Source: an uncultured Candidatus Rokubacteria bacterium (GTDB lineage: Bacteria > Methylomirabilota > Methylomirabilia > Rokubacteriales > DASRDR01). Taken from it: 64,000 nt of DNA. Both the position numbers and the translations under genes were made by a program. Of this stretch, positions 4,973-30,859 are shown piece after piece. How positions within the stretch are numbered: position 1 is the stretch's first letter; each line of letters starts with the position of its first letter. The stretch lies in contig CAVPSB010000014.1 of assembly GCA_963708025.1 (NCBI GenBank), positions 480,001 to 544,000 of the forward strand, given 5' to 3'. Below the pieces are notes generated by a model, which ran no database searches, was not told the origin of the DNA, and saw only the letters and a list, made by a program, of their open reading frames with translations.

Positions 4973-5222
4973 CTACGGGTTGGGTAGCTCGAGCAATCCG
5001 ACCAGGCGCGCGCGGTCGAACCCCACGACGACTTCTTCCCCGACCACGATCACCGGGACGGCCATCTGACCGGTCCGCCTGATCAGCTCCTCCCGGCCCT
5101 CGACGTCCGTGCGTGACGTCGATGTCGGTGAACGCGACCCCCTTGGACGAAAGAAACTCTTTCGCCGCTTTGCAGGGGCGTCAGGTGGGGGAACTATAGA
5201 CTGTGACAGGCTTTTCAGTCAC
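4973..5222 (-). CDS. Glutaredoxin/NrdH-like selenoprotein (UxxC); absent from the ORF track; one extra base near 5111
   Basis: Manual translation from GTG at 5222: MTEKPVTVYSSPT-U(TGA 5183-5181)-RPCKAAKEFLSSKGVAFTDIDV / TDVEGREELIRRTGQMAVPVIVVGEEVVVGFDRARLVGLLELPNP*. Glutaredoxin motifs (VP, GF) are present and a hairpin follows the UGA. Confidence 0.85.
5139..5183 (-). promoter_or_regulatory. Putative bacterial SECIS element
   Basis: mRNA UGA-CGCCCCUGCAAAGCGG-CGAAAGA-GUU-UCUUUCG-UCCAAGGGG: perfect 7-bp upper stem, G-first apical loop 23 nt after the UGA, CCCCU/AGGGG lower stem. Confidence 0.7.
5146..5221. repeat. Left att site of the island (76-bp direct repeat)
   Basis: Identical to 30685-30760 (GACGAAAGAAACTC...CTTTTCAGTCA). 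Confidence 0.95.
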
Positions 5223-6538
5223 GTGGCGTCCTCCGATATCGGGTCACCATTGGCTGGTTGTTGCGGATTTGTTGCGGATTGTACCGGCCTTGGCGCTCCG
5301 TCGTCGAGCCGATTCACGATCACCCGGCGCCGGGTGGGGACCAGGTGTCCATAGTAGTCCACGGTAATTTTGATGCTCGAATGGCCCAGTTGTTTGCTGA
5401 CATAGTGCAGGATGGCCTCGCCGTCCTGTCCGTGGTCCACCGCCTCAGCGATGAGTCGTGTCGCGTAAGTATGCCTCAACCCGTGCGGTTTCCGGTATCG
5501 AACACGGGCCCGCGACAGGAGTCGCCGCCAGATGTTCGAGAACGTCGTGTGGCCGATGGGTTCTTCGGCTCGGTACCACCCCGAGAGGCGGCGGTGGGCC
5601 TGAACCCGGAAATCTCGTCCTGACGGCGTACGTTTCTCGTGGGCTGTCACCCGGCTCTCGGATGGGGGCGGGAACAACCACGGGCCCGCGGGCCCCTCGC
5701 GCTGACGGATCGCCAGGTAGGCCTCCATGTCCGCGACGAGCTGATCGCTCATGTCCACCCGGCGCACCTGGTGGCTCTTCGGGGCGTTGAATCGAGCGGA
5801 GCCGTGCTTGCGCCCACGCCGGCCCTCCGTCCGGCGCACCCACAGCTGACGCACCGCGAGGTCGACGTCTGCGACCTGGAGGCATCGGCCCTCGCCAGGG
5901 CGAAGGCCGGTCCGGGCAAGCGTCAGTACGAGCACGTAGATCTCGCGTGGGAACTCCGCCCGTGCCACGTCTATGAGCTGGCGCAGCTCCTCCGCGGTGA
6001 ACACGGAGAGCCCCACCTCGCGCCGGCGTTCCACATGGCTCGCAAGGAGGAACCGTCCAGCCCGGGCGGCCGGGTTCGCCTGGAGCAGCCCATCCTCCAT
6101 CGCACTGTTCAGACACGAACGCAGGACGCTCAGGCGGAGTGCACGCGTTTTCGATCTGGTACCACTCTGGCGCATGGCGTCCAAGGCCGTCAGAATCTCC
6201 TCGCGACGGATGGCCGTCAACCTGCGGGAGCCGAGCAGCGGTAGCCAGTGCTTCCGAACGATCCGCTGATAGAGATCGGCAGATCCGATCGCGAGATCCT
6301 CCCGCCGGGCAAGCCACGTTTCGGCGTATCCGGCCAGGGTGACGTCGGAGCCTCTCCTCGCTTCGAGGATTCCGAGATCGTCGAGTGAGAGTCGACGCTC
6401 GAGCTCGGCCGCCGCCAGGTACGCCGCCTTGCGCCCGCCCCGGCCGCGCAGTCGGGTCGAGATACTCTTGCGTTGCCCCTTGTGGTCGACCACGAGATAC
6501 CACATCCCGTTCTTGCGGAGCCGCGGCTTGACGCCCAT
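5219..6538 (-). CDS. int: Tyrosine recombinase / phage-type integrase
   Basis: Catalytic residues intact: RTGLRPGE, PKS, HGLRH, QLGH, YYGH. N-terminal arm-binding-like region and SAM-like core-binding region. Confidence 0.95.
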   Translation of the reverse strand: MGVKPRLRKNGMWYLVVDHKGQRKSISTRLRGRGGRKAAYLAAAELERRLSLDDLGILEARRGSDVTLAGYAETWLARREDLAIGSADLYQRIVRKHWLPLLGSRRLTAIRREEILTALDAMRQSGTRSKTRALRLSVLRSCLNSAMEDGLLQANPAARAGRFLLASHVERRREVGLSVFTAEELRQLIDVARAEFPREIYVLVLTLARTGLRPGEGRCLQVADVDLAVRQLWVRRTEGRRGRKHGSARFNAPKSHQVRRVDMSDQLVADMEAYLAIRQREGPAGPWLFPPPSESRVTAHEKRTPSGRDFRVQAHRRLSGWYRAEEPIGHTTFSNIWRRLLSRARVRYRKPHGLRHTYATRLIAEAVDHGQDGEAILHYVSKQLGHSSIKITVDYYGHLVPTRRRVIVNRLDDGAPRPVQSATNPQQPANGDPISEDAT

Positions 6539-6556
6539 CGTGTGCTCGATCTCGGC

Positions 6557-6826
6557 CTACCGTCCGAGAAACTCGCGCAGCACCGGCGCCACCAGTCGCT
6601 CGACGTCGGATCGACCCTGATTGCGGTACCGGGCTATCCATTCATCGAAATCCGAGCGACGGACCAGGATCTTTCCCTCGACGCGGTAGCACGGGAGCGG
6701 ATGGACTGAGTGGACGAGCCGGTCGCGTAGCCACCGGATCGAGCAGCCCGAGTACGTGGCCAGCGCCCGCAGCGACAGGTAGGGATCCAGCCGCGTCGAC
6801 AGCTCGAGGTTGTCGACCACGACCAA
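6557..6826 (-). CDS. Excisionase / AlpA-like helix-turn-helix protein
   Basis: YLSLRALATYSGCSIRWLR...LPCYRVEGKILVRRSDFDEWI; directly upstream of int. Confidence 0.8.
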   Translation of the reverse strand: MVVVDNLELSTRLDPYLSLRALATYSGCSIRWLRDRLVHSVHPLPCYRVEGKILVRRSDFDEWIARYRNQGRSDVERLVAPVLREFLGR

Positions 6827-6847
6827 CCTTGGCCGGTGGAACGGAGC

Positions 6848-7273
6848 TCAGGGGTCCCTTGAGCCGGCTCCCACTGTTGTGGAGGCTGGTCGTCTGCTCC
6901 GGCCGGATCGCTGACCGTCACGGTATTCCCTCTTCATACCGTCTCGAGACCACGATCGACTCGCCGTGGTCGATATGCTCCTTTCGGGATCGGCACCCCG
7001 TCCCGTCATTGGCCGATCGCCTCCGTGGAGTTCGTTTGCGTGGAGGCAGTGTGGCTTGCATCGGGGCGTTACGTGGATGGCGTGCTGGGCACGCCACGCT
7101 CGGATGGCTTCCTCGTCACTGAGGGTGTCCGCAGAGATGAGAACATCAGTCGCGACGAATGCATTGGCTCGAGAGCCCACTATCAGGACTCCGCACCGCT
7201 GATCTTCGTGCGGTGTCCAGAGAATGGCGGCTCGGAGACTCGGGTCCTCCTGCCGCGTGCCTGTCGCTGCCAT
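6848..7273 (-). CDS. Hypothetical protein
   Basis: ATG-start ORF co-oriented with xis/int; no recognisable motif. Confidence 0.35.
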   Translation of the reverse strand: MAATGTRQEDPSLRAAILWTPHEDQRCGVLIVGSRANAFVATDVLISADTLSDEEAIRAWRAQHAIHVTPRCKPHCLHANELHGGDRPMTGRGADPERSISTTASRSWSRDGMKREYRDGQRSGRSRRPASTTVGAGSRDP

Positions 7274-7328
7274 CTGTCTTCCCGTTGCCCGTTAGGCACA
7301 AGACGCTGCGAGCGTCAGGGGGTGTCCT

Positions 7329-8000
7329 TCACGGAGTACCGTGCTCATCGTCCGGATAGGGCTCGGTTCCTGGCGCAGATCCACCTGGACAGGAGCGATT
7401 CGGATCGGGTGCGTTCCTAGCGGCATTCTTGGCCTTCCGGTGCCCGAACCAAGGAGGCGAAGCGGTCCATGCGGGCGCCAGGGCCCGCTCTGCGTCCGGC
7501 CGGCGCTTGAGGAACGCCGAGAGCGCGCGGCCGTCGGCAGCCAAGAGCGGCCAAGGAGCCGCCCCGGCCTCCGTGGCCGCGCGGAAAACGACTGCGGCGC
7601 TGTAGCGGCCCTTCGTGGGGAAGAAGCCGAGCTCCATGCCGTCGAGGGGGAGGGGCTCGCGATCCTGGCGGTGGTGCCGGAGGCGCTCACGGAGGCGTCC
7701 GACCCGAGCCTCGCCGGCCTGGAGGAGCGCCCCGAGCCGCCGTGTTTCGGTGTCATCGGGGACCGGCGCCTCGTCCACGGCCTCGAGGGCGGCCTGGCCG
7801 GCCGGACACCGGTTCACCCAGGGGCAGGTGCCGCAGGCGGTCGAGGGTCGCGGAGGAAAGGCGGCAGGATCTTCCGGGCGGGCCAGGGCGTCGGCGATGA
7901 CGGCCGCCGTCGTCTGTGCCCAGGCGAGCGTCTCGACGGCGTCCGCTCGGGCGAAGGTCGTCCGGGCGACACGGCCGGTGCGCAGGTCCCAACCCCCAAC
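7329..8000 (-). pseudogene. C-terminal part of a PD-(D/E)XK (RecB/Cas4-like) nuclease; N-terminus missing
   Basis: The frame of ORF 7329..7817 stays open upstream: WDLRTGRVAR...AFPPRPSTACGTCPWVNRCP (CxxC-x5-C). No start codon before the repeat array. Confidence 0.55.
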
Positions 8001-8008
8001 CTGACTCA

Positions 8009-8795
8009 GATCGGTGCCCCGCCCCCGAAGGGGCCCGAAAGCCGACGAGATGGAAGACGAACAGCGGCCCCCCCCACCGGATCAGACCGCCGCCGTCCCA
8101 ACTCGCCACCGACCTCCCACGACAGCGCGCGCGGGAGCCGAACGCGCCACGGTGTACCCCGATGTGTCATGCACGCTCTTTCCTCCGCAACCCGATCGAC
8201 CCAGCCCACCGCGACCCAGGGCGATCCGTCGGACGCCACACTTCGTCCCTCACCGACGGCCCGATCCGCAGGAGACCGGACTGCCACTCCCAACCCGACC
8301 CGACAATCCGACACGATCGCTGACAGACTCCTCCCGAGGGTGACGGGGGCCGACGTCCAAGATCGGTGCCCGCCCCCGAAGGGGCCCGAAGGCCGACGAG
8401 ACGGAAGACGGACAGCGGACCTCCCCACCGAATCAGACCGCCGCCGCCTCAGGCGATCACCGACCTCCCACGGCAACGCGCGCAGGAGCCGAAGGCGCCG
8501 ACCCCTCACCGACGACCGCGTTGCTCGGCCCCGGTCTTCCGCGTCCATCCGACAGCCCGTGGTCACCGCGCCACTCCCACAACCGCGACCCACCGACACC
8601 GCGACACGGCCGCAGGCAGACTCCTCCCGAGGGTGACGGGGGCCGACGTCCACGATCGGTGCCCCGGGCCCGAAGGGCGACGAGAGGGAAGATGAACAGC
8701 GGACCCCCAGCGAATCAGACCGGCGCCGCCCCAGGCCACCGCCGACCTCTCACGGCAGCGCGCGCGGGAGCCGAAGGCACCGACCCCTCACGGAC
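8009..8795. repeat. Three diverged tandem copies of a ~300-350 bp non-coding unit
   Basis: GATCGGTGCCC... starts at 8009, 8361 and 8654. CAGACTCCTCCCGAGGGTGACGGGGGCCGACGTCCA occurs at ~8324 and ~8617. Confidence 0.85.
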
Positions 8796-9071
8796 GATCA
8801 CACCCGCCGCGACGTGGGCGGCCCTGCCCTCCGCATGCCCCGCGCCGATCCGAGGCCCCACGGTCGGACCCCGTCGATCCTCCGGTGCCGCGCGCTGCCG
8901 CCACGCCACTCCACGATTGGTGATCGACTCGCCAGCATAGGAATCTCATTAGGCGTGCCGCTGGGCGGTGCCGCTCGGAGACCCGGCTGGAAGTCGGCGT
9001 CCCTCCAGCGGGTTTTTGATTCGGAGCGCGGCGACGTCGCCCTGACAGGGTGGCTCGTCCTGGCCGGGCCC

Positions 9072-9512
9072 TCAGCGGCGGAACGATCGCAGCAGCCGGT
9101 CGAGCCGGGCATCGGTGTCGGGCCACGGGTCCGGGGACCCGTCTGGCGCGCGCCCGCCATGGGGCGGATCCGGTCGGGTCACGAGCGCCGCCTCGTTCCC
9201 CGAGGCAGGTCCGTGCGATCGCCGATCGGGCCGGGAGGTCGGGACCCCCTCGCCCCCGGCGCGGCCGTCGTCGGCCCCGGGCGCGTGCCGTGACGAGCGC
9301 CCGCACGGCCTGGCGATCAAGAGCGGGACGATCCGCGTGGTGCGCGTCGGGATCGCCGCGCAGCCGGTCCGAAGGACCGCCTTGATGGCCCGGCCGCGCC
9401 CGCTGGGAGGGAGTGCCTAGACCAGGCCGAGGACCTCCAGGTCCTCGGACCGCTCGAGATTGAAGTACACGCTCAGGTAGGTCTGCGACGAAGACGCGCG
9501 AGACACGGTCAT
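9072..9512 (-). pseudogene. Small putative DNA-binding (ParR/StbB-like) protein with an internal TAG at 9419-9417
   Basis: MTVSRASSSQTYLSVYFNLERSEDLEVLGLV*ALPPSGRGRAIKAVLRTG...DARLDRLLRSFRR reads in one frame with ORF 9072..9320. Confidence 0.35.
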
Positions 9513-9565
9513 CGCGCGCGGCGAGCAGGGGGACACGCCGCGGCTCCTGCTGGGGCCATGCTCGG

Positions 9566-9606
9566 CGTCTATCAGATCTCTGATAGACGTCTGATATGAT
9601 TTGATA
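9566..9606. promoter_or_regulatory. Perfect 11-bp inverted repeat with additional TYTGATA iterons (operator or centromere-like site)
   Basis: CGTCTATCAGA-TC-TCTGATAGACG followed by TCTGATA and TTTGATA; AT-rich patch in GC-rich DNA. Confidence 0.55.
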
Positions 9607-9639
9607 CGCTCGCGGCGTCTCGGAGTTCGCCGCCCGGCT

Positions 9640-9930
9640 GCCGGGCGTTCTGGTGTTGACGCTCTCCATTCTCGCGGTCGCGGGCGCGGGAGACGGCTCG
9701 TAGGAGAGCGCGCCGCGCTCCTCGGGGCCGCCCTCTACGCCGCCAACGGGTTCCTCCTCGACCTCGCCGGCGGCCGGGTTGCGACGGACCACATCGACAC
9801 GCTCTTCGTGTCGCTGGTGGCGCTCGGGGCTTTTCTGTCCGTTGACGAGGCCGACGGCGAGCGCGAGGACTGGCGAAAGCTCGTCGGACTCGGCGCGATC
9901 ACGGGGCTCGCTCTCCTGGAGCGCCGCCAA
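9640..9930 (+). pseudogene. Fragment of an ArnT/GT39-like membrane glycosyltransferase
   Basis: GRRLVGERAALLGAALYAANGFLLDLAGGRVATDHIDTLFVSLVALG...GAITGLALL; no intact start or end. Confidence 0.45.
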
Positions 9931-10019
9931 CCCCTGCGCGGTGATCTTGCCCTCCGGCGCGCCGGCCCCGGGTGGGTCCGGCGCCCTGGGGCGGGGAGTC
10001 GACGCAGCGGTTTCCGCCA

Positions 10020-10890
10020 TCACCCCGCTTGGGCGCGGCTCTTCCTTTGCCACGGGACTCGCCCTGCCGGTGTCGAACCCTCACCAAACAGCAAACAGCT
10101 GCAGCTTCCCGAGCGCGCATGGTGCCGGTCGGGACCTGGCGGTCCTTCCGCTGCGCGAGAGGCCGGTCGGCTTGGTTCGCGCTCACCGATCCCGCGCGCA
10201 CGGCATCGACCAGGTCGGGCGGCCGTTCCCGGACGATCCGGTCCAGCTGCCGGGTGGCTCGCTCGCTCATCCCGACCGTCCGTCCTCGCCCACGCTGCGT
10301 GGGGACCGTCGGACCCGAGCCCGCGACGCGTCCACGCCGGAGGTTGGCCGCGCGTCGGTTCACGACGCTGAGCTGGACCTCGGCCTGGGTCAGATCGAGG
10401 ATCAGCCGCCGGAGGTGGGGGGCGTCGATGCGCCGCCGGCCGGCGTCGAGGGCCGCCCTCGTGCTCTCGAGCTGCATGCGGTCGCTCTGCGAGCCCGCCT
10501 CGGGTACGGCGACGAGTCGGACCGGGACCTCCGTCAGGCCGAACGCCCGTGCCAACTCGAGCCGATGCACGCGGTCCACGACGCGCCCGTCCGGCAGGAT
10601 CAGCAACGGGTCCCGGACGCCGGACTCCTTCAGGAGCTGCCGCAGCATCTCCCAGCTCGGCGTTCCGCGGAACGAGGGGATCTCGATGAAGCGGGGCGCA
10701 TACGGTCTGAGCCCTACGACTGACCGCCACTGGATGGGGCCGACCCGGTCGGCGGAGAGCTCCGATGCCCATACCGGGACGGGGATGGCGCCGCCAGGCC
10801 GCCGCCCCCGTCGGGCTCCAGGACTTCCCCGGAGGGTATGGGCGGGGCGTTGCCGCCGAATGCCGGGGCCAGGGAGAGCGGCTCGCTCAT
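10020..10890 (-). CDS. ParB-like N-terminal domain plus HTH protein (frameshifted, ends uncertain)
   Basis: SGVRDPLLILPDGRVVDRVHRLELARAFGLTEVPV and VGMSERATRQLDRIVRE..DLVDAVRAGSVSANQA. Confidence 0.6.
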
Positions 10891-10917
10891 AGTCAGGATG
10901 CCCTCGATGACTACTCG

Positions 10918-11273
10918 TCAGTCCGGTCCCGCGGACGCCGGGGTCCGCCATGGGAGAGATGGGAACGTGACCCGATGGCCGGCACCCCCGATATCGGCGC
11001 AACCGGTGGGCGCTCGGTGCGCCCCCTCGAGCCGCTGGGAGAGGAGCCGACGCGATGTCGCGACCATTGCGCGGATCTCCTCCACTGGCCGGTCGAGGAG
11101 GCGACCGATCTGGTGGGCGGATCGGGCGACATCGTCCTCGAGGCCCCAGTGGAGGGACAGGACGTGCTGGACCTCGGACGACAGAGCCTCGAAGGCGGCG
11201 CGTAGCCGCTCGCGCTCGATGCCTGCGGAGGCGTCTCCGGTCTACGCTGCCGCCGTTGTCGCTCGGTCGCCAT
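10918..11273 (-). CDS. Small sigma-70 region-4-like HTH protein (frameshift near 11221; not in the ORF track)
   Basis: Manual translation IERERLRAAFEALSSEVQHVLSLHWGLEDDVARSAHQIGRLLDRPVEEIRAMVATSRRLL; GGGAGG precedes the ATG at 11273. Confidence 0.55.
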
Positions 11274-11362
11274 GCCTCCCTTTCCGGGAGGCTGGCACCT
11301 CCGACCGCCCACACGTCGCTACGTCCGGGCCACCCTCCCGGGGCAGGATGCCCGACCGGGCA

Positions 11363-11478
11363 GGTGATCACGATGACCGATCTCGGTGATCACGACACCG
11401 ATCCCGGTGGTCATGATCGACCGATCTGGGTGATCACGATGGACCGATCCTGGTGCTCACGATGGGCCAAGACGCGCA
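11363..11478. mobile_element. Orphan IS21-family-like terminal repeat array
   Basis: Five 21-23 bp units GGTGATCACGATG(G)ACCGATC ending in ...ACGCGCA; no istA/istB nearby. Confidence 0.6.
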
Positions 11479-11661
11479 CAAGGTCCGCGTCACTACAGCG
11501 TCCCCGTCGTCTAGGCTAGCCTACTAGGACCCGAGATTTTCAATGGGCGGGCGGCGCCTGCACTTCCAGATACTTCCGGCCGGCTTTGGACGTCGGGTTG
11601 TAGCTCTCGTGACAGTTCTGCCATAATCCCGAGGGGATGGCCGACACGGCTTCGGTCGGTC

Positions 11662-14600
11662 ATGACCACCCTGGCTCTCCACAAGCCATGGGGCTACGGC
11701 CAAGGGGGCTTCGCCTCACATATGCTCGTAGCTGAACCGGACATTCCGCGGCCGCCACGTCGTGCACCGGGTAGGCCGCATCGCGTCGTCTCCGCATGTC
11801 TGGTTTCCTTGCGCTTCGCGGGCCGGAGCGCCCGGTCGGCTCTCCTGGCCCTCATGGCGCTCGGTCTGCTCGCCCCCGGTACCCTGGTGGCGGAGGAGCC
11901 AGGATCCCCGAAGGCCGTTCTCATCCTGCTCCCGGACCAGCCGACCCTTCCAGGGACCCAGCTCCTGCTGGCCGGGATACGCGGGCCGCTCGTCACGACC
12001 TGGGGGTCCCGCGTCAGCATCTACAGCGAACACGTGGACATCGAACGCTACCAGGGGGCGGACGTCGAGCGCAGGGTTCGTGATGCGTTCCAAGCCAAGT
12101 ACGCGGGCGTGCCGCTCGATGCCATCGTCGCCTTTCAACCCTCCCCGCTCGGGTTCCTGGCCCGCTGGGGCCGTGACCTCTGGCCCGGGGTGCCGGTCGT
12201 GGTGGCCGGGGTGGACGAGCTCTTGCTGACCCGGCTCGAGCTTCCTCCAAGGGTGGCCGCCATCCCGATGCGGTACGACGTCGAGGGCACGGTGCGCCTG
12301 GCCCTCCGCCTGCTGCCGGAGACCCGGCGAGTGGCGTTGATCAGCGGCGTGTCGCCGCAGAATCGGCACTTCGCCGACCTGCACCGGGAGCGGCTTCGAG
12401 CCTTCGGCGACCGGATGGAGCTGATCGACCTGACCGGCCTGAGCCTGGAGGAGATGCTGACGCGCGTCGCCGCGCTTCCCGAACACTCGATCCTCTTGGT
12501 GTCTCTGGTCTGGATCGACGGTGCCGGGCGATCCCTCGTCGGGCTCGACCTCCTGCCCCGGGTGTCGGCCGCGGCCAACCGCCCCGTGTTCTCCGTGTTC
12601 GGCCCGACGGTTGGGGCCGGCGCCGTGGGGGGCTCGATGGTCGACCTCCTGGAGCTGAGCGCGGAAGCGGGCCGGGTCGCGGTGCGCGTCCTGCGCGGCG
12701 AGGCGGTGCCGCCGTCGGAGGCCAGCCAGGTGAGCCAGCAGGTCGTCGTTGACTGGCGCCAGCTCCGGCGCTGGGGGCTCGACGAGCACCGGCTGCCGCC
12801 CGGCGCGCTGGTGCTCCACCGCGAGCCGACCCTGTGGGAGCAATACCGCTGGGCGGTCGTCTCGTCCCTGGGTGTTCTGGTCAGCCAGACGCTCGTCGTC
12901 GTGGCGCTGCTCTTCGAGCGGCGCCGGCGGCGGCGCGCGCAGGTCGCACTCGAGGACCGCCTGCGCTTCGAGACGCTGCTGACCGAGATCTCCACCGGCT
13001 TCGCCGACCCGCCGGGCGGCGTGCTGCGGGAGCCCGACCGAACACTCCGTCCGACGAACGGCGTCGAGGAGCAGGTCCGCGAAGGCCTCCGCCGGATCGC
13101 CGAAGGGCTCGGCGCGGAGGGCGCGAGCCTCTGGCGGTTCTCGACCGCAGGAGCGTCTCTCGCCGTGTCGTGGTCGCAGGAGGGGCTCAGCGCACCGCCC
13201 TCTGAGATCTCGCTCGATGACTATCCCTTCCTGCGGACGAGGGTGATGCGTGGAGAGGCCCTGCGGTTCCGGAGTCTGGACGAGCTGCCACCCGAGGCGG
13301 GCGTCGATCGGCAGAGTCTCTTGCGACTGGGGGTCCGGTCGTTGGTCGTGGTCCCGTTTGAAGCCACGAGCGCGGAGCCCCGCGCGACCGCCTGCCTGAC
13401 GCTGCGGAATGGGGAGACCTGGCCGGACGACGTCGTCCAGCGGCTTCGGACGGTCGGAGAGATGTTCGCGGGCGCCCTGGCCCGGGCCCAGGCGGTGGCC
13501 GCGCTGAGCGAGAGCGAGGCGCGGTTTCGCTCCATGGCGGATACCGCGCCCGTGCTTATCTGGATGTCCGGTCTCGACAAGGGCTGCACGTTCTTCAACA
13601 AGGGCTGGCTGGACTTCACGGGACGCACCATGGCGAGTGAACTGGGCAGTGGTTGGGTCGAGGGCGTGCATCCCGATGATGTCAACCGCTGTCTCGAAAC
13701 GTGTGTCAGCGCCTTCGACCGTTGACAATCGTTCGCGACGGAATACCGCCTGCGCAGGCACGATGGGGAGTACCGCACCATCGTGGACAAGGGCGTGCCG
13801 CGGTTCGCGCCGGACGGGACATTTCTCGGGTACATCGGGTGCGGCGACGACATCACCGAGCGCAAGCGAGGCGAGGAGCTGCGACGGCAGGTGCTGGAAG
13901 CGGCTCCAAACGCGATGATCATGGTCAACCAGGAGGGCCGGATCACCCTGGTGAACGCCGCCGCGGAGACGGTCTTCGGCTACGCCCGCGAGGAGCTCAT
14001 CGGGTCTGCCATCGAGATCCTGATCCCCGAGCGCTTCCGGTCTGACCACCCGCGCGATCGCACCCACTACTTCGCCGATCCCACGGTGCGGATGATGGGG
14101 GCGGGGCGCGAGCTCTACGGTCGTCGCAAGGACGGTAGCGCGATTCCGGTCGAGATCGGGCTCACGCCCGTCCAGACACCGGAAGGGCTGTTCGTGCTGG
14201 CGTCCGTCGTCGACATCACCAGGCGAAAAGCCGCCGAACTGGAGGAGCAGCGGCGTCGCGCGGAGCTCGCCCACGCGGCGCGCATCTCCACCATGGGCGA
14301 GCTGGCGGCGTCGCTGGCGCACGAGCTGAACCAGCCGCTCACGGCGATCCTGGCGAACGCCCAGACCGCCCAGGAGTGGCTCGCGGCCCCCGCCCCCGAC
14401 CTCGCGGAGCTCCGGGACATGGTGGACGACATCGTCGCCGAGAACATCCGGGCGAGCGAGGTGATCCGGCGGATGCGTGCGATGCTCAAGAAGGGCGAGC
14501 TCCGCTCGGACGCCGTTCGACCTCAATGAAATCGTCCGCGAGGTCACGCGGCTGATCGCCAACGACGCCCTGCTCCGCGGCGCCTCGATTGACCTCGACC

Positions 14601-15004
14601 TGTCGCCGGCGCTGTCGAGGGTCCGGGGCGACGCCGTCCAGTTCCAGCAGGTCCTGCTGAACCTGCTCGTCAACGGACTCCACGCGGTGGCCGATGAACC
14701 CCCGCACCGGCGCCGGTTGATCGTCCGCACCGCCGGCGTGGACGGCGGCGTCGAGGTGTCGGTGCGGGACACGGGCAAGGGGATCGCCGAGAGCGACCTC
14801 CCCCAGGTCTTCACGCCGTTCTTCACTACGAAGGGCGAGGGCCTCGGGGTCGGACTGTCCATCAGCCAGTCGATCGTCGAGACGTTCGGCGGCCGGATCT
14901 GGGCCGAGAACGAGCCCGATGGCGGCGCGATCTTCCGGATCCGCCTGCCGGCCGGCGCGACCGCAGCCGGGCCACCGGGACGCACCGCTGATCTTCCTGG
15001 TTGA
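11662..15004 (+). CDS. Sensor histidine kinase (periplasmic ABC-binding-like domain, TM, GAF, two PAS, HisKA/HATPase); frameshifts near 13722 and 14510
   Basis: ORFs 11662..13725, 13783..14529 and 14477..15004; [43 protein letters not shown]. Confidence 0.85.
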
Positions 15005-15584
15005 CGACGACGCGGGCGTCCGCAAGGCGCTCGCGCGCCTCCTCAGGTCGGCCGGCCACGAGGTCGAAGCGTTCGCCTCGGCCCGCGAGTTCCTCGCCCG
15101 CGAGCGGTACGATGGGCCCGGCTGCCTGGTCCTCGACCTCCGGATGCCGGAGATGACGGGCCTCGAGCTGCAGGACGCTCTGGAGCGCGCTGGTCACACT
15201 ATCCCGGTCGTCTTCATCAGCGGTCACGGAGACATCCCGGCGAGCGTGCAGGCCATGAAGGCCGGGGCGACGGACTTCCTCACCAAGCCGGTGCAGAACC
15301 GTCATCTCCTCGCGGCCATCGAGCAGGCCCTGGCCCGCGCCGCGGCGGCCCGGGCCGACCGGGCCGAGCGGGACGCGGCCCGGGCGCGCATGGCGGGCCT
15401 GACCCCACGCGAGCGCCAGGTGTGCGCGCTGGTGGCCACCGGCCTGCTGAACAAGCAGATCGCCGCCGAGCTCGGAACCGGCGAGAAGAACATCAAGCTG
15501 CACCGGGCCCACGTCATGCAGAAGCTCGGCGTGGGCTCGGTCGCCGAGCTGGTCCGCCTCGTAGACCGCGCCGGTCTCGCCTGA
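14919..15584 (+). CDS. FixJ/NarL-family response regulator (REC plus LuxR HTH); start uncertain
   Basis: LVDDD..VR, CLVLDLRMP, DFLTKP, LTPRERQV..LLNKQIA. Confidence 0.9.
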   Translation: MAARSSGSACRPARPQPGHRDAPLIFLVDDDAGVRKALARLLRSAGHEVEAFASAREFLARERYDGPGCLVLDLRMPEMTGLELQDALERAGHTIPVVFISGHGDIPASVQAMKAGATDFLTKPVQNRHLLAAIEQALARAAAARADRAERDAARARMAGLTPRERQVCALVATGLLNKQIAAELGTGEKNIKLHRAHVMQKLGVGSVAELVRLVDRAGLA

Positions 15585-15704
15585 CCCTCGCGGGCTCCCG
15601 CGGGTCAGGCGGCCCTCCCGGGCCGGGCAAAGCGGGCGAGAGTGCTCCGAGTCGTGGCTCGAGCGTAGCTCGGGTCCCGTCCGGTCCGCCCGTCGGCCCG
15701 GGCG

Positions 15705-16082
15705 CTAGCCCTTCGCCGTGGGCGTGATCGCGTGCCTGACAGCCTCCACCAGCCTGTCCCGGTCGAGCGGCTTGCGCAGCCAGGTGACGAATCCTGCGCT
15801 CCGAGATGTCTCGCGAGCGCCCGGGTCATCGCCCGCCGTGATGAAGACGATGGGGATCGCCACCCCATCCTCGAGCAGGGCCTGCCTCAGCTCCACGCCG
15901 CTCATCCCCGTCAGTTTGACATCGAGGACGAGGCAGTCCGGGGTGGATCCGGGCGAGTGCGCGAGGAACTCCTCGGCGGACTCGAATGGCGTCACCGTGA
16001 AGCCCGCGGCCCGCAGGAGGCGGGCGAGAGCCTTCCGAACCGCCGCGTCATCATCGACGAGCGCGACAGTGTGTGCGGTCAT
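15705..16082 (-). CDS. Single-domain response regulator receiver
   Basis: ALVDDDAAVRKAL, CLVLDVKL, ITA, LRKP. Confidence 0.85.
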   Translation of the reverse strand: MTAHTVALVDDDAAVRKALARLLRAAGFTVTPFESAEEFLAHSPGSTPDCLVLDVKLTGMSGVELRQALLEDGVAIPIVFITAGDDPGARETSRSAGFVTWLRKPLDRDRLVEAVRHAITPTAKG

Positions 16083-16410
16083 GCGGCTACCATCCAAGGC
16101 CATGGTCAGATATCCGCGAGGTGCCCGCTACTGGACCAAAGTCCAGTTGATGTCCCTCCGCCGGGATGCGAGAACTGACGTTCACAGAATACGGTCGAGT
16201 AGGGACACGTGAGACGACCCGCTTGCCGCTGATCGGCGCGTGAGTCGCGACAACGGACGGCGTCCGGGCAATTGCGGCGTGGCAAGGCGTTGCCCAAGTT
16301 CGAGCATGCGAACTAACGGCTGGGCTACGACGACGGAGGGGTGGCCCCCCCGCGTCGGGCGCCGCCGAGCCAACCAGGTACCAACGACCGACAGGACGAG
16401 GAGCAGTCAG

Positions 16411-17110
16411 ATGAAGCGCATTCGCGGATGGCAGATGGCGATGGTGATCACTCTCCTGACGCTCGGCGCCGCGGCGCCGGCCTCGGCGGAATGGTTCGCC
16501 GACCTCTACGTCGGCGGCGCGATCTACACGGACCCCACCATCGAGACGAACGTCCAGACGGCCGCCGGCAGCGTCTCGCGCGAGAGGACCAAGGCAGAAG
16601 CCGACAACGATGTCACCTTCGGCGGTCGCTTCGGCTACTGGCTGGAAAGCCTTCCCTGGCTCGGCTTCGCGAGCGACGTCTCCTACTTTCGAGCCGGAGT
16701 ATCACCCCCAGGGCGGGAGTGGCGCCCTCATCAAGGCCAAGCTCCGGGTGGTCCCGATCACGCCCCTGGTGATGCTGCGGCTGCCGCTGCTCCAGAGCCC
16801 CGAGTATCCGGCCGGCCGGCTCCAGCCGTACGTGGCCGCCGGCCCGGGATTCTTCGTGCTCGACACGACGGTCCGGGTCGCGTCCGGCTTGGGGCCGCAA
16901 GAAGTCTCGGAGACCGGCGTGGACATCGGCGCGGATCTTCGAGCCGGTGTCGCCTGGAACTTCACCCCGAACTGGGCGATCTTCGGCGAGTACCGGTTCA
17001 CCCACTTTTCCGTCTCGCCGAGCCGCAACACCCCGGGGGGGCGCATCTCCACCGACTTCGACATCGACACCAACTCCTTCCTGGCCGGGATCAGCTACCG
17101 CTGGCGATAG
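16411..17110 (+). CDS. Outer-membrane beta-barrel protein (frameshift near 16690)
   Basis: Signal peptide, AEWFADLYVG, LQPYVAAGPG, FGEYRF, C-terminal GISYRW. Confidence 0.75.
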
Positions 17111-17217
17111 CGCCTCGTAGTGCTGGACATAAGCTCCCGGCCTCGATGAGGCCGGGAGCGAGCTGAGGACGACATGACGGGAAGCAAGCTGGCCTGGTCG
17201 AGCGGGCGAGGGACTCG

Positions 17218-18147
17218 GTGACGGACATCGGGCGATGGGCTTGCCTCGGACTGATGACCATGGTCCTGGCGCTGCTCCCGTCGCGCGGCCATGCGGACGA
17301 ACCGGGGACGCGGGGCCGCGGGTTCGGGCTGCTCGAGTCCACCGCTGGAGGCGACCCCGCATCCGTGGTCGGCCAGAGCACCATCGCCTCGCCGATGCCC
17401 GGGTCCGTGCTGATCGCCCAGGCCGGCGGAACGGGGCCGGAGGTGGGACCGGACGCGCCGGCCGAGGGGTGGCAGTTCCGTCTGGCTCCCTATCTCTGGG
17501 CGCCGCGCACCAAGATGACGCTCGACGTGGGCCGGCTCAGCCAGTTCGACCACCATCGACTTCGTGGACATCGTCCCTCAGCTCCATTTCGCCTTCGCCG
17601 CTCACGTCGAGGCCACGCGGCGAGAGTGGACCGGGTTCCTCGACCTCCTGTACATGAGCGTGGGCCAGAGCGAGACACACGGCGGCATCCCCGTGAGCCT
17701 GGGCCTCCAGCAGGGGCTCTTCGAGTTCGGCGGGACGTACCGCCTCGGCCCCGTGTCGCTGGGCCGGGCGGGCCGGCTCACGTTCGAGCCGCTGGCCGGC
17801 GGCCGCTTCATCTGGGTGCACGGGTCGCTCGGCTTCCCGAACCAGAAGGTCTCGGACAGCGCCAGCGTGATCGACCCGATGGTCGGGGGCCGCATCACCT
17901 ACCACATCACGGACACGGTGGCGCTCTGGTTCCGCGGGGACGTGGCGGGCTTCGGGATCTCCGACAGCCAGACGAAGCTCACGTACAACCTCATCGCGGG
18001 GCGTCGAATGGCGGTTCCGCCACGCGTCCGCCCTGGCTGGCTGGCGCTACATGAACATCGATGTCGAGAAGGGCAGCGGGTCGAGGACCTTCAATGCGGA
18101 CATCGAGATGTACGGGGCCGTTCCTCGGGCTCAACATCCACTTCTGA
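17218..18147 (+). CDS. Outer-membrane beta-barrel protein (several frameshifts)
   Basis: WQFRLAPYLWAP, DPMVGGR, FRGDVAGFG; terminal FLGLNIHF* with C-terminal Phe. Confidence 0.7.
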
Positions 18148-18233
18148 ATCGCGGGGTCCGTCGAGGAGCGCGGGTCGAGAAGCCTGTTGGCCATGAAACA
18201 GGGACCGGCACGGCTCGTCGCTGGAGGCCACTG

Positions 18234-19655
18234 ATGAGATCGATCACGCGCGCAGCCGCCGCACTGTGTCTTGGGGCCATGACGGCGTTTCCGCTAGCCG
18301 CCGGCGCGGAGGAGGCCCCATCGCTGGGCGCGGTGGAGGCGGTCCGCATCGCCATGGACGCGTACATCTACGGCTACCCCCTGGTCACCTTCGACATGGC
18401 CCGCAAGCAGCAGACCAACGTGGCCACGCCGGACGCCGAGCACGCCCCGATGGGGCAAGTGATCAAGATGCGGTCGTATCCCGCGGTGGACAACCACTGC
18501 TGCGCCGCCCCCAACGCCGACACGCTGTACACCGAGGTCTGGCTCGATGTCTCCAAGGAGCCCTGGGTCGTCGGCATTCCCGACATGGGCGACCGCTACT
18601 ACATCGTGCCGATGCTCGACGGGTGGTCGGAGGTGTTCGAGGTGGCGGGCTCGCGCACGACGGGCGGGAAGCCCCAGACGTACGCCATCACCGGTCCGGG
18701 CTGGTCGGGCGCGCTCCCGAAGGATGTGACGCAGGTCAAGTCGCCCACCGGGATGGTCTGGATCCTCGGGCGCATCTACAGCACCGGCACGCCCGAGGAC
18801 TACAAGGCGGTGCACGCCCTGCAGGACAGGTTCTCGGTCGTTCCGCTGAGCGCCTACGGCAAGCCGTACACGCCGCCGCCGGGCGTCGTCGATCCCGGCT
18901 TCGACATGAAGACGTCGGTGCGCAAGCAGGTCAACGCCCTGGACATCGAGGTCTATTTCACCCACCTCGCACAGCTGATGAAGACCAATCCGCCGACCGC
19001 GCAGGATGCGCCGATGGTCGCGCGCATGGCCAGGATCGGGTTGGTCCCGGGGCAGGACTTCGACCCGAGCAAGCTGAGTGTCCTCGACCGAGAGGCCATC
19101 AGGATCGTTCCGAAGCTCGCGCTTCTGGAGATGGGGCTGCACCTGAAGCGGCAGAAGACGACCAACGGATGGCTGTACTTCACCAAGGGCGTGGGCAACT
19201 TCGGCACCGACTACCTGGTGCGGGGCATGGCCAACCTCCTCGGCCCCGGCTGGAACCGCCCGCAGGACGCCGTGTATCCGCTCTCGCAGAAGGATGCGAA
19301 CGGCGACGAGTACGACGGCGCGAAGCACCGGTACGTCATGCGCTTCGAGAAGGGCAAGCTGCCGCCCGCCGAGGCCTTCTGGTCGCTGACGATGTACGAC
19401 GCCGACTTCTTCTTCGTGCCGAATCCGATCGATCGCTACGACCTCGCCCAGCGCGACACGCTGATCGCCAATCCGGACGGCTCGGTGGACCTGTACCTCC
19501 AGGCGGACTCGCCGGGCAAGGACAAGGAGCCGAACTGGCTGCCCGCGCCGAAGGGCAAGTTCAGTCCTGGTGATGCGCATCTACTCGCCCCGGGACACGC
19601 CGCCGTCGATCCTCGACGGTTCTGGACGCCGCCGCCGGTGAAGCGCGTGCCGTAG
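18234..19655 (+). CDS. DUF1254/DUF1214 exported protein
   Basis: AYIYGYPLV, PNADTLY, FWSLTMY, NPDGSVDLY, NWLPAP. Confidence 0.9.
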   Translation: MRSITRAAAALCLGAMTAFPLAAGAEEAPSLGAVEAVRIAMDAYIYGYPLVTFDMARKQQTNVATPDAEHAPMGQVIKMRSYPAVDNHCCAAPNADTLYTEVWLDVSKEPWVVGIPDMGDRYYIVPMLDGWSEVFEVAGSRTTGGKPQTYAITGPGWSGALPKDVTQVKSPTGMVWILGRIYSTGTPEDYKAVHALQDRFSVVPLSAYGKPYTPPPGVVDPGFDMKTSVRKQVNALDIEVYFTHLAQLMKTNPPTAQDAPMVARMARIGLVPGQDFDPSKLSVLDREAIRIVPKLALLEMGLHLKRQKTTNGWLYFTKGVGNFGTDYLVRGMANLLGPGWNRPQDAVYPLSQKDANGDEYDGAKHRYVMRFEKGKLPPAEAFWSLTMYDADFFFVPNPIDRYDLAQRDTLIANPDGSVDLYLQADSPGKDKEPNWLPAPKGKFSPGDAHLLAPGHAAVDPRRFWTPPPVKRVP

Positions 19656-19838
19656 CGGTTGGCACATGCCATCGGCGGAACAGCTCGGCCACCGCCCTCC
19701 AGAATCGTCGCGAAAGGTGAGCTGTGGATGCAAAGGGCCAAAGGACTGCGGGCGCAGCTCGCCAGCGCCAGTGAACGAGGCCTTGCGAAGGCGGCGCCGA
19801 GATCGCAAACGCCGACGTTCTGACGCAAGGAGAGAACC

Positions 19839-20630
19839 ATGGAAACCAGGAAGAAGATCAAGTGGGCGATCGGCATCGTCGCCGCCCTCGTCGTCGTCGC
19901 CGCCCTCGTCGTGTATCCCAAGCTGGTCGTGACCCTGCCGAACGACGGCGCTGACGCCAAGCCGTTCACCTTCAAGGACGTGCGCGGGCACCGCTACACC
20001 GAGATGTTCCTCATCGGCGGGAACGCGATCACCAAGGACCTCAAGGCGAACGTCTACAACACCTGGGGTCTCAACGGCGGCGCCACCACCGGGGATTCAT
20101 GTCCCGCGGCGCTGCTGGACAAGGTCGATGTCAAGTCGGTGAAGGAGCAGTACGGTGTGCTTGCCTCGTACAAGAACGGTCCCCGCCTGTGGACGCTGGA
20201 CTGGATCGAGGTCGAGATGGGCAAGGAGCTGGACTTCGGCGGCATGAAAGCACGATGGGTGAACTGGCTGGACATGAAGGGCATCAGCACGGAGCCGGGT
20301 GCCGCCGACTACAAGAACATCACCGTCGGGCGCCACACCAAGTTCGGCTTCGACAAGGGCAAGCAGGTATTCATCCTGGATGACCCGGAGGGCAACTCGT
20401 GGGCCATGAAGTCCTTCAGCCTCATCACCCATCCCGATCAGAAGTTCGAGGAGGCCGGGACCCTCGGCAGCCGCCTGAAGCTTCCCCCGGGCTGGAAGTT
20501 CCGGGCGCCGGTGCTCGAGCAGGACCTGATCCTCACTCCGGACAAGGACGGCATCGCTCACATCACGCAGGATGACTTCGGCAACACCTACGACCGCGTG
20601 GGCGGCCCCTACAGCAACTACAAGCCATAG
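19839..20630 (+). CDS. Conserved hypothetical membrane-anchored protein
   Basis: RBS, N-terminal TM, intact 263-aa ORF with strong codon bias (LKLPPGWKF, QDDFGNTY). Confidence 0.75.
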   Translation: METRKKIKWAIGIVAALVVVAALVVYPKLVVTLPNDGADAKPFTFKDVRGHRYTEMFLIGGNAITKDLKANVYNTWGLNGGATTGDSCPAALLDKVDVKSVKEQYGVLASYKNGPRLWTLDWIEVEMGKELDFGGMKARWVNWLDMKGISTEPGAADYKNITVGRHTKFGFDKGKQVFILDDPEGNSWAMKSFSLITHPDQKFEEAGTLGSRLKLPPGWKFRAPVLEQDLILTPDKDGIAHITQDDFGNTYDRVGGPYSNYKP

Positions 20631-20677
20631 CCCGAAACCGCACAGACATCGGCGGGGCAAGTGATGAGGAGGCAGCC

Positions 20678-21237
20678 ATGAAGAGCGGAGACCTCGGCAA
20701 ACGTAGGAGGCACTTCCCGATCGGCGTTTCTCCTGGCGGCAGTAGTGTTGTCACTGGCGGCGTGTGCGACGACTACGACGACTTCTTCCGGAGCGCCCCA
20801 GCTCATGTTCGTGCAGACCGCGGAGGATCTCAAGGTAGACCCTGCCGCGAGCACCATCCGGCTGGTGAAGGTCAACCAGCAGACGCTGTACTTCTCGGAT
20901 CGGCCGCAGCGTATCGCCGGGCATCTCACGATGGCCGACTATCTCAAGGAATGGACAGCGAAAGCCGGCAAGGACAATTTTGGCGCAGACCCGCCGAATG
21001 CCGCGCTCTCCGTCTATGAGCCGGGACAACCCGACAATACGCTTGTCGTGGTCAAGATCACCAACCCGGTGGTCGACGGCGCGGACCTCGTCTACAGCTA
21101 CAGCATCATCAGACGGCACGATGCCCGCCAGTGGCGGCGCGACCTCGCTGTTCATCGACTGGATCGGGGTCGGCGGCGGCGTCGGGGCCGGCTTCCACGG
21201 CGTCGGCGTCGGCGGCCGCGGTCTCGGTGTCCGCTAG
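20678..21237 (+). CDS. Hypothetical lipoprotein (frameshifted)
   Basis: LAAC lipobox, LMFVQ, YFSDRPQR, DPPNA. Confidence 0.65.
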
Positions 21238-21379
21238 CTCGGGGCGTTGCATGATCACTCGGCGAGTTTCGATGAGTGAAGGGCGGCGCGCGGTTACGGT
21301 CCTCGCGCTGCGCACGGGCGCGCCTGCCGCGGGGCAGGCGCCGCCGGCCCGGCTGAACCAACCGGAGAAGGAGACCAGG

Positions 21380-22163
21380 ATGAGCACATTGAATTTCAGA
21401 ATGGCCGCAGCATTGTTCGCGCTCGGGGCGCTCGCGCTGTCGGCGACCGTCGCCACAGAGGTCCGGGCACAGGCACCGGCGGTGGATCCGGCCGCCACGC
21501 AGATCCTGAAGCGGATGACCGACTACCTCGGCAGCCTGCAGCAGTTCAGCGTGCATACGCAGAACACCCTCGAGGACGTGCTCGACTCGGGGCACAGGGT
21601 CGATTTCGACGTCTCGGCGAACGTGATCATCAGCCGGCCGAACAAGCTGCGCGCCGAGCGCAAGGGCGATCTGATCGACCAGATCTTCTACTACGATGGC
21701 AAGACGCTGACGCTGTACAACCCGTCCGACAAGGTCTATGCGACGGAGCCTGCACCCGGGACGATCGAGGAGCTGCTCGACTTCGCGCGCGAGTCGCTCG
21801 GGCTCGTCCGTCCCGATCGCCGACCTGGTCTACCGCAACGCCTTCCCGCTGCTGATGCAGGATGTGACCTTTGCGGCGGTGGTCGGCAAGGCGGTCATCG
21901 GCGGGGTCAAGTGCGATCATGTGCTCTTCAGCCGCCCGGGTGTCGACTTCCAGGTATGGGTCGCCGACAGCGGCCAGCCGTTGCCGCGCAAGTATGTCGT
22001 CACCGACACAGGAACCCCCGCGCTGCTGAGCGTCACAACGGTCATGAGCGACTGGAACGTGGCTCCGGCCGTGGCCGATGCCCAGTTCACCTTCGTGCCG
22101 CCCCAGGGGACCAAGCCGATCACGTTCATGCCACTGGATACAACCAGCGGCTCCAGCCGCTGA
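21380..22163 (+). CDS. DUF2092 periplasmic protein (frameshift near 21810)
   Basis: ILKRMTDYL, RPNKL, FYYDGKTLTL, VDFQVWV..G.PLP.KYV, F.F.PP. Confidence 0.8.
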
Positions 22164-22182
22164 CACCAACAGGAGGAAGCAA

Positions 22183-22676
22183 ATGAAGACGATGCTCAAG
22201 ATCGCCGTAGTCGCCACTACCCTTGTCTTGATGCTCATGGCCGATGTGCCGCTTCTGCCCGTGCAACTGGTGCCCGAAGCGCACGCGATCCTCGGCGTCC
22301 GGCGCCGCACGCCGTCGTGGTCGGGGCCGCAGTCCACGCTGCGGATTCGGCCCAGATGGCCCAGGCCCAGCAGCAGGCGGCCGCGGCCCAACAGCAGGCC
22401 GCCGCCGCCCAACAGCAGGCCGCCGCGGCCCAACAGCAGGCCGCGGCCGCTCAGCAGCAGGCTGCCGCTGCCAGCAGCAGGCCGCCGCAGCGCGTCCCGC
22501 TCCGCCGCCTGCAGCCGCCGGGACACCGTTGCCGCTGGGCACCGTCGTTGTCCGCCCTTCCCGCAGGTTGCGTCTCCACGCCGGTCGGCGGCGTGGAGTA
22601 CTACTACTGCGGCGGCAACTTCTATCGCGCGGTGTTTCAGGGGAACACCCTGGTGTATGTGACGGCGCAGCCGTAA
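22183..22676 (+). CDS. Exported Q/A-rich protein with a DUF6515-like C-terminus (frameshifted)
   Basis: 21-bp QQQAAAA repeats; LPAGC...GGVEYYYCGGNFY. Confidence 0.6.
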
Positions 22677-22971
22677 TGAAAAAGACAGGCGAACCTGGCC
22701 CGGAACCCGGCGGTCCTGGCGAGCGGAGTGAGCCCGGTCGTCGCGGCGGTCGAGGAGGTCCGCCGTATTCTCGGGCTGCACGCACGTCTGAGGAGGACCA
22801 CGAGTGAACGCCAAGGGCGAGGTCCTCATCTGAGGACCAGGAGGGCACCGGTGGGTGGAGGGAAGCCGCAGTAAGTCGCGCCATCACGCGATCGTAGCGC
22901 AGGGTCAGGGACGAGGCAGCGGAGCCGTGGCCGCAGGGAGCGTTCACCATGTCAGTGACAAGGAGGGGCGG

Positions 22972-27188: not shown

Positions 27189-27271
27189 CCGCCGAGGACC
27201 ATGGCCGGGAAACACGACCATGCCACCCGATTCGTCGTGGTCGTCATGTCGATCCAGGAGGACTCACGCAC

Positions 27272-27847: not shown

Positions 27848-28030
27848 TGCGGTGGCGCCCGAGGAGCGCGCCCGCACGAGCGTCCGGCAACGGGTGACGA
27901 AAGAGATCATGCGATGCGCCGACGCGACCCTGGCAATGGGCGACACGAACCGACCAGTCGCTCTGGCGGGCTCTCCGCTTATCGTAGTCCCGGTCGACGC
28001 GGGCTCGGGTCGGGCGCGCGGGGGTTCTGA

Positions 28031-30760: not shown

Positions 30761-30859
30761 TTCCGACACTCTCCTCTATGGTACCCATTGGCCCGAGTGG
30801 CCCCGTTTTGCGCCCGTTCGCGCCGCGTCGTTCCGGCTCCAGGGCTGGGGTCGCCGCGG

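Follow-up and report, generated by a model that had tools for sequence, protein, structure and literature searches.

Glutaredoxins with selenocysteine (Sec) at the active site are already known and characterised. 'Glutaredoxin (Grx), PF00462, UxxC' stands in Table 1 of PMC13188914 as a prokaryotic selenoprotein with experimental verification, and the organisms for which PMC1794560 counts Sec-glutaredoxins include Geobacter, Alkaliphilus and Moorella. For Grx1 of Clostridium oremlandii, the account given in PMC7642778 is of a native selenoprotein described in its Sec-to-Cys form, with Cys13 as the catalytic and Cys16 as the resolving residue, and in dithiol and monothiol versions. At family level, therefore, a further Sec-glutaredoxin is not a new finding. 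Here we describe a member of this family, grx, encoded on the minus strand of a stretch of 64,000 nucleotides (positions 480,001 to 544,000 of contig CAVPSB010000014.1, assembly GCA_963708025.1; hereafter the window) from an uncultured Candidatus Rokubacteria bacterium. Very likely, grx encodes a Sec-glutaredoxin of the YruB family in which a UGA codon is recoded by a selenocysteine insertion sequence (SECIS) inside the open reading frame (ORF), a single surplus base in the assembled gene is a likely error, and the gene serves as the attachment site of an integrative element. The features of the gene are as follows.

4973..5222, minus strand: grx, Sec-glutaredoxin-like gene (YruB family), 82 codons long when the TGA stands for Sec and a surplus base is passed over
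5222-5220, minus strand: GTG start codon of grx (translation)
5181..5183, minus strand: in-frame TGA, decoded as selenocysteine, that opens the U-R-P-C active-site motif (alignment with the first Cys of CxxC)
5172..5174, minus strand: TGC codon of the resolving Cys of the UxxC motif (translation, homologue alignment)
5108..5114, minus strand: stretch with one surplus base relative to orthologs, which breaks the assembled frame (MAFFT gap at 5111)
4975-4973, minus strand: TAG stop codon of grx (translation)

Translated from the GTG, the minus strand gives VTEKPVTVYSSPT, then the TGA (5183-5181), then RPCKAAKEFLSSKGVAFTDIDVTH; around the Sec codon, the peptide of 5222..4973 is VTVYSSPT-TGA-RPC-KAAKEFL. 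A preliminary description of the locus had proposed this frame, with the TGA at the first Cys position of a CxxC motif and a glutaredoxin beyond it, and the frame stands as described. Downstream of the TGA the window offers no start codon in frame. Past ...DIDVTH the grx frame is lost: beyond RPCKAAKEFLSSKGVAFTDIDVTH it degenerates into Gly/Arg-rich nonsense, and the adjacent frame carries DVEGREELIRRTGQMAVPVIVVGEEVVVGFDRARLVGLLELPNP, up to the stop at 4975-4973. For all comparisons of the protein we used a read-through version (P0002) in which the TGA is a residue (U) and GGAC is taken as one step (D), one base being skipped. This protein has 82 residues, aligns without gaps to its homologues and ends in ...LELPNP, directly before the TAG. 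A GC-rich inverted repeat lies just past that stop, at 4932-4981, between the convergent grx and TPR genes; it resembles a terminator and is without a clear U-run.

The read-through protein matches the Pfam glutaredoxin domain (PF00462) over all of its 60 positions (1-60) with an E-value of 1.6e-19 and 70.3 bits against a cutoff of 22.9. It also passes the curated cutoff of the NCBIfam model TIGR02196 (glutaredoxin-like protein, YruB-family), with 90.9 bits against 88.55 over positions 2-73 of 74. Among solved structures, 7c10, a glutaredoxin of 84 residues, comes closest (E 1.1e-16); it aligns over residues 4-79, shares KEFLS and VPV...VVVGFD and places its Cys13 and Cys16 on U14 and C17 of the read-through protein. 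Entries 7c12/7c13 are the C16S variant of 7c10; from this variant and the Cys13/Cys16 numbering we infer that 7c10 and 7c12 are C. oremlandii Grx1 proteins. Judged by its sequence, the product of grx is thus a small glutaredoxin-like protein of YruB type. The preliminary description had spoken of a glutaredoxin/NrdH fold, of which the glutaredoxin half can be kept and the NrdH half cannot: the scores are 53.2 bits for TIGR02194 (cutoff 85.75) and 28.4 for PRK10329 (cutoff 131), which rules out an NrdH identity, and a Pfam scan of the window found no nrd genes near grx. A glutaredoxin-like selenoprotein of the Uxx-star type (NF041212) was also considered and falls just short, at 65.4 bits against a cutoff of 66.

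A protein search returned 185 homologues, among which those of full length have CxxC. In the nearest, P0003 (80% identity), the motif is TCRPC, and the Cys-containing homologues are named YruB-family by JGI. Many other records, of 65-68 residues, start with 'MPC...', right past the Sec position. A start directly after the UGA is the customary truncation artefact of selenoprotein genes in gene calling. In one JGI record (P0004) a W occupies the Sec position (YSSPTWTPC), where the source's gene caller may have translated TGA as Trp.

At the nucleotide level, a search of genome contigs with an alignment of nine sequences yielded 80 related loci. Their best identity is at most 73%, and the best-matching ones come from metagenome-assembled genomes (MAGs) labelled Rokubacteria, Rokuibacteriota or Methylomirabilota. 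The codon aligned with the presumed Sec codon is TGA in 32 loci, TGC in 29 and TGT in 19, so that orthologs with Cys at this position, which the preliminary description had suggested looking for, make up 48 of the 80, with the UGA itself kept in the other 32. Among loci labelled Rokubacteria or Methylomirabilota the TGA is present in 19 of 20, the exception (L001) having TGC. Elsewhere it is seen in Nitrospinota/Nitrospinae (L050, L073), Tectomicrobia (L078), an unclassified bacterial MAG (L071) and MAGs labelled Chloroflexota, Chloroflexia or Dehalococcoidia (L054, L075, L076, L077, L080). Upstream of the TGA the frame is open to a start codon in 31 of the 32 loci; the remaining one (L013, see below) has a frame break of its own. 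The eight codons immediately ahead of the TGA encode a conserved strand, V-x-V-Y-S-S-P-T, and their pairwise difference is 0.315, 0.312 and 0.518 at codon positions 1, 2 and 3, respectively. The variable third position and the open frame together indicate that coding selection acts in one and the same frame on either side of the TGA, upstream as well as downstream.

The second line of evidence is an RNA hairpin just past the TGA, with the following parts.

5146..5166, minus strand: upper SECIS hairpin with a 9-bp stem (folding, covariation, Sec/Cys contrast)
5157-5155, minus strand: GUU loop, starting 23 nt past the UGA
5135..5183, minus strand: extended predicted structure, whose lower stem takes in the UGA itself (weaker support than for the upper hairpin)

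The bacterial SECIS model, as set out in PMC13188914, has an apical loop of 3-9 nt with a G at loop position 1 or 2 (G or U usually comes next), an upper stem of 4-16 bp, a distance of 16-37 nt between UGA and loop and a minimum free energy of -7.5 kcal/mol or lower. In the window the arms GGCGAAAGA-GUU-UCUUUCGUC (5166..5146) form part of the minimum-energy fold, and the hairpin falls within all four rules, with a loop of 3 nt (GU), a stem of 9 bp, a spacing of 23 nt and -10.3 kcal/mol. The latter value, obtained for a 27-nt piece, corresponds to z = -3.6 and was equalled by none of 200 shuffled sequences; for the 49 nt starting at the UGA, the figures are -21.7 kcal/mol, z = -3.1 and one shuffle in 200. 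The SECIS-like hairpin with a GUU loop 23 nt downstream, as first described from the letters of the sequence, is therefore well in line with the published model.

Its conservation was assessed in a gapless alignment of the window with the 32 TGA loci. In the upper helix 89.9% of the cells are paired and six of the nine pairs have changed on both sides, that is, in a compensatory manner; the covariation score of this helix was unmatched by any column shuffle or slid register. The lower helix is 74.1% paired, with three of nine pairs changed on both sides. Loci with a Cys codon differ sharply. Of the 32 TGA loci, 27 form at least eight of the nine pairs, and of the 48 Cys loci none does; mean folding energies are -9.9 and -1.9 kcal/mol, respectively, and the loop columns read GTT in all 32 TGA loci compared with 7/48 Cys loci. 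The point is well illustrated by the Cys locus L001, from a Rokubacteria MAG of 72% GC, which encodes ...KAFLTS... in GC-rich codons without a hairpin, where the TGA loci have AAA-GAG-TTT-CTT-TCG, an AT-rich run for genomes of about 70% GC. Among the Rokubacteria loci CGAAAGAGTTTCTTTCG is nearly invariant. The hairpin is thus kept among orthologs with compensatory changes, and in TGA loci only.

The same hairpin is borne by a second type of Sec-glutaredoxin paralogue, VYWSST-U-QSC-HAAKEFLSS, found at L015-L018, L021, L022, L029, L039, L068 and L074; both types occur in one MAG (L011 and L029). The gene upstream of the second type is a MerR regulator in L018 and a MerB-like alkylmercury lyase in L068, which hints at a mercury-related context for this paralogue. 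A scan of the window for other in-frame TGA codons gave one candidate with coding-type GC content at third codon positions on both sides, at 16409 on the minus strand (...CHPRMRFI-TGA-LLLVLSVV...). It is without a redox motif and probably marks a gene boundary.

The 5' end of grx coincides with one end of an integrative element, whose parts are these.

5146..5221: attL, left attachment (att) site, an exact 76-bp direct repeat whose ends are the second base of the grx start codon and the final base of the SECIS hairpin (self-comparison)
30685..30760: attR, the second copy of the 76-bp repeat (self-comparison)
5222..30684: body of the element, 25.5 kb (Pfam; locus comparison)
5219..6538, minus strand: tyrosine recombinase (integrase; PF00589, E 6.7e-19, plus Phage_int_M)
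6557..6826, minus strand: small helix-turn-helix protein adjoining the integrase (PF12728 HTH_17, E 4.8e-07)
5259..5275, minus strand: 17-nt motif GCAACAAATCCGCAACA, 38 nt inside the element from attL
30599..30615, minus strand: the other copy of this 17-nt motif, lying 70 nt inward of attR
30669..30761, minus strand: displaced 5' fragment of grx with ATG start, UGA and SECIS (direct sequence reading)

At the left end the TGA stop of the integrase overlaps the GTG start of grx (ACGTGA), and a GGAGG lies 8 nt before the GTG. At the right end the grx fragment has a GAGGAG ribosome-binding site upstream of its start at 30761 and diverges right past the hairpin, continuing as ...SSVHAK before a stop, so that it spans 30 codons at most. 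The two copies differ in the start codon, GTG at 5222 and ATG at 30761; insertion of the element altered the grx start from ATG to GTG and swapped the region upstream of it. The preliminary description had pointed to the presence of the TGA in both repeat copies as a sign that it is not a one-off sequencing error. The repetition of exactly 76 bp does argue against such a read error, but the copy at 30761 is no independent gene, and the 'repeat copies' are the attL and attR duplicates of a mobile element rather than copies of a gene. No third att site is apparent: the hairpin core, with up to two mismatches allowed, occurs only twice in the window, and a short-word blastn of the att region against 30800-36000 produced only chance 8-11-mers.

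The cargo of the element, about 24 kb, comprises a sensor kinase, LuxR-type and single-domain response regulators, an outer-membrane protein and an MscS channel, along with DUF1254/DUF1214, DUF2092 and Lnb_N proteins. Tandem repeats with 131-nt units spaced 282-351 nt apart occur within the element at 8018-8781. The helix-turn-helix protein at 6557..6826 is, from its position, a candidate excisionase. The 17-nt motif has two matches only in the window, where none would be expected by chance, and is found at the same place in L013; its copies are candidate arm sites of the integrase, which would flank the core in the circular form of the element.

Comparison with related loci shows what the undisturbed arrangement looks like. 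In 11 of them (L002-L012) a divergently oriented GalT-like gene lies upstream of grx, followed by GDH in some loci and then by the isc cluster. The downstream order grx-TPR-VWA is that of the window in 10 of the 11, L012 being covered only into the TPR gene. Since these loci are without the insert, it is the window that carries an insertion in the 5' end of grx. Of the whole 25.5-kb insert, the integrase alone has a counterpart among the 80 related loci. This is found in L013, from another Rokubacteria MAG, where an integrase 94.7% identical in amino acids and 93.6% in nucleotides occupies the corresponding junction, again with the ACGTGA overlap. The flanking chromosome, in comparison, is 77-80% identical, and the cargo is unrelated. 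This points to a family of site-specific elements that has recently spread between species. L013 is also the only TGA locus with an integrase beside grx among 15 scanned upstream ORFs; the scan held 21 ORFs after filtering, from which six GalT-like duplicates (L004, L005, L006, L007, L010, L011) were left out.

We tentatively go a step further, to a view that we hold to be somewhat less probable than even: that the chromosomal attachment site of a family of tyrosine integrases is formed by the DNA encoding the SECIS hairpin plus the UGA and the beginning of the selenoprotein gene, and that it is chosen on the same grounds as tRNA genes are. Hairpin DNA could be attractive to an integrase as being both conserved in nucleotide sequence across species and of dyad symmetry. 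A spare start codon, UGA and SECIS carried on the element would then allow the selenoprotein gene to be rebuilt directly behind the integrase gene.

The window also has a 3.2-kb segment with SBP_bac_5 and isochorismatase genes (30761-33958), placed between attR and the GalT-like gene. It is missing from the orthologous loci and may be a relic of an earlier insertion. A decayed integrase at 30761-31150 is not claimed, its support being weak: a tblastn match with an E-value of 0.006 in a search space of 701 bp, no Pfam match at E-values up to 5 and some nucleotide resemblance directly ahead of the start codon.

Some observations weigh against a functional, recoded grx, and the first of them concerns its frame, which apart from the UGA is not uninterrupted: the gene is frameshifted as assembled. 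The extra base near 5111 that the preliminary description had assumed is really there in the assembled sequence. The window is one base longer than all ten aligned orthologs, with the MAFFT gap at 5111, and blastn of the grx region against orthologs opens exactly one gap in every alignment. As Asp39, conserved in at least 90% of homologues, must be kept, the extra base must fall within about 5108-5114. The family could then be one of Sec-glutaredoxins and the window copy nevertheless a true pseudogene, its +1 being real and perhaps tolerated after the element had replaced the promoter and 5' end. As assembled, grx could indeed be a real pseudogene, and we regard this as the strongest of the alternatives, though an unlikely one. 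The change of start codon and the replacement of the upstream region are in its favour. So is L013, in which the grx at the same integrase junction is likewise frame-broken; its one-base break lies elsewhere, at about 7594-7640 upstream of the TGA, with the extra base in ...AGTTCGCCCGACCTGA....

The rest of the window is relevant here, because grx is not the only gene affected. The neighbouring VWA-domain gene shifts frame at about 3317-3320 relative to 3/3 orthologs; a sensor kinase near 14.5 kb has HisKA and HATPase_c in different frames; and Peripla_BP_6, the second ABC_tran and AMP-binding domains are each split across frames between 47.9 and 50.8 kb. (The sites in this last region are 47900-48200, about 49800 and about 50650-50800; further ones are possible at 24-29 kb and 52.8-53.1 kb.) Including grx, at least seven breaks occur in the 64 kb, both inside and outside the mobile element, and they suggest either an indel-prone assembly or local gene decay. 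They are clustered rather than evenly spread, several at 47.9-53 kb and none seen at 34-47 kb, which weighs on the side of a pseudogene in so far as clustering fits local decay as well as local trouble in the assembly. Even so, at least six other conserved genes broken in 64 kb would be unusual for a free-living bacterium and are typical of an error-prone assembly, and for this reason the extra base near 5111 is probably an assembly error. In addition, the 100% identity of the two att copies marks the insertion as recent, with little time for decay since then; beyond the one base grx has no defect and aligns to its homologues without gaps; and the element provides a good GGAGG site as well as a start codon. 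We therefore continue to favour an intact Sec-glutaredoxin gene.

A second alternative takes the TGA for a normal stop, or a nonsense codon, and the hairpin for a chance feature, the region being non-coding or a dead gene without Sec. Two of the remaining observations point in this direction. The window contains no tRNA-Sec, nor do 33 related loci (only tRNA-Glu and tRNA-Asn are found there), and no selA, selB or selD came to light in it. A scan of 4800-5400 at E-values up to 10 gave no Rfam family for the hairpin; two weak matches to miRNA models were the scan's only results, at chance level and on the GC-rich hairpin past the grx stop. Two other points weigh on the evidence for the hairpin itself. 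RNAalifold alone recovers six of the nine pairs, with a near-zero consensus energy. The hairpin also overlaps the conserved peptide KEFLSS, and conservation of its sequence is thus partly at the protein level. Against an ordinary stop, the TGA occupies the same codon in loci of several phyla with the frame conserved on both sides, the hairpin strictly co-occurs with the TGA and covaries, the glutaredoxin would be impossible without read-through in the absence of an in-frame start past the TGA, and the family is, according to PMC13188914, one of experimentally verified selenoproteins. Taken together, these facts make an ordinary stop highly improbable. As to Sec use in general, PMC13188914, citing Deng et al. 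(2026, Cell Rep), refers to a Methylomirabilota MAG with 63 predicted selenoprotein genes; for this host, Sec use is documented at phylum level only. The window does hold an iron-sulfur cluster operon, Rrf2-IscS-IscU-IscA-HscB/HscA (36833-42006), and a second, NifS-type cysteine desulfurase (43777-44946); both desulfurases score below the cutoff for the selenocysteine lyase SclA and so provide no evidence for Sec metabolism.

A genome-wide change of code by which TGA would be read as a standard amino acid (Trp or Gly), for which the W recorded in P0004 might speak, can practically be discarded, since TGA still ends the integrase (5221-5219) that overlaps the grx start codon as well as several orthologous grx genes, the aligned residue among the 80 loci is Cys and never Trp or Gly, and a local hairpin that accompanies the TGA is the hallmark of recoding by way of a SECIS.

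If grx is a Sec-glutaredoxin, as we believe, its working can be outlined. After integration, the element's copy would supply the ribosome-binding site (GGAGG), start codon, UGA and SECIS to the 3' part of the host gene. By analogy with Escherichia coli and with established bacterial Sec decoding, the hairpin would recruit SelB with Sec-tRNA(Sec), and Sec would be inserted at the UGA. The attacking residue of the active site would then be the selenocysteine in T-U-R-P-C. Sec14 would attack disulfides of substrates or oxidised partner enzymes, Cys17 would resolve the intermediate, and the protein would alternate between selenolate/thiol and, with Cys17, a selenenylsulfide. The roles of the two residues are borrowed from the closest characterised relative, a clostridial Sec-glutaredoxin that is reportedly the subject of a 2011 paper by Kim et al. 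The U-G/V/R-P-C motifs of this clade presumably resemble the CGPC site of thioredoxin, and for that reason a thioredoxin-like behaviour is possible, again by analogy.

Recognition of grx matters in the first place for annotation. This gene and many of its Rokubacteria relatives have been missed or truncated by gene callers, and their recognition means one more selenoprotein, small and widespread, for a phylum whose richness in such proteins has already been reported as unusual. Searches of the literature on Rokubacteria selenocysteine and on Methylomirabilota selenoproteins found no paper on this particular gene. If confirmed, an element that targets and rebuilds the recoding part of a selenoprotein gene would represent a new kind of attachment site, and the placing of att within the SECIS would offer a route by which UGA/SECIS cassettes could pass between genomes. 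A full-text literature search gave no report of a SECIS-containing att site; the matches to 'SECIS' include papers on staphylococcal mobile elements that are unrelated to selenocysteine. Outside the element and distant from grx, the window also has tandem repeats of about 108-147-nt units at 57589-58180, between the biotin carboxylase and carboxyltransferase genes.

Set beside known systems, grx is closest to Grx1 of C. oremlandii. The two share a length of about 80 residues, a thioredoxin fold, Sec as the first residue of a U-x-x-C motif near position 13-14 and a SECIS inside the ORF just past the UGA. They differ in the motif itself, which in the description of Grx1 in PMC7642778 is U-P-x-C, while it is U-R-P-C in the window and U-G/V/R-P-C among the orthologs, and in the host, a high-GC member of the Rokubacteria/Methylomirabilota as opposed to a clostridium. 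Within the YruB family (TIGR02196), whose cutoff the protein passes, it stands apart from the CxxC proteins on which the model was built by having Sec for the first Cys. NrdH-redoxins are similar in size, fold and CxxC-type site, yet the protein of the window is no member by score. The Uxx-star proteins (NF041212, NF041114, NF041211) are distant glutaredoxin-like selenoproteins; their names we take to denote a C-terminal U-x-x-stop, whereas Sec in the window protein is N-terminal. As for the element, it is like the dusA-specific integrases, as presented in PMC4482086, in combining a tyrosine integrase at the 5' end of a conserved protein gene with variable cargo. It is unlike the dusA islands described there in that its target is a selenoprotein gene, that its att takes in start codon, UGA and the SECIS hairpin in full, and that the stop codon of its integrase overlaps the regenerated start codon.

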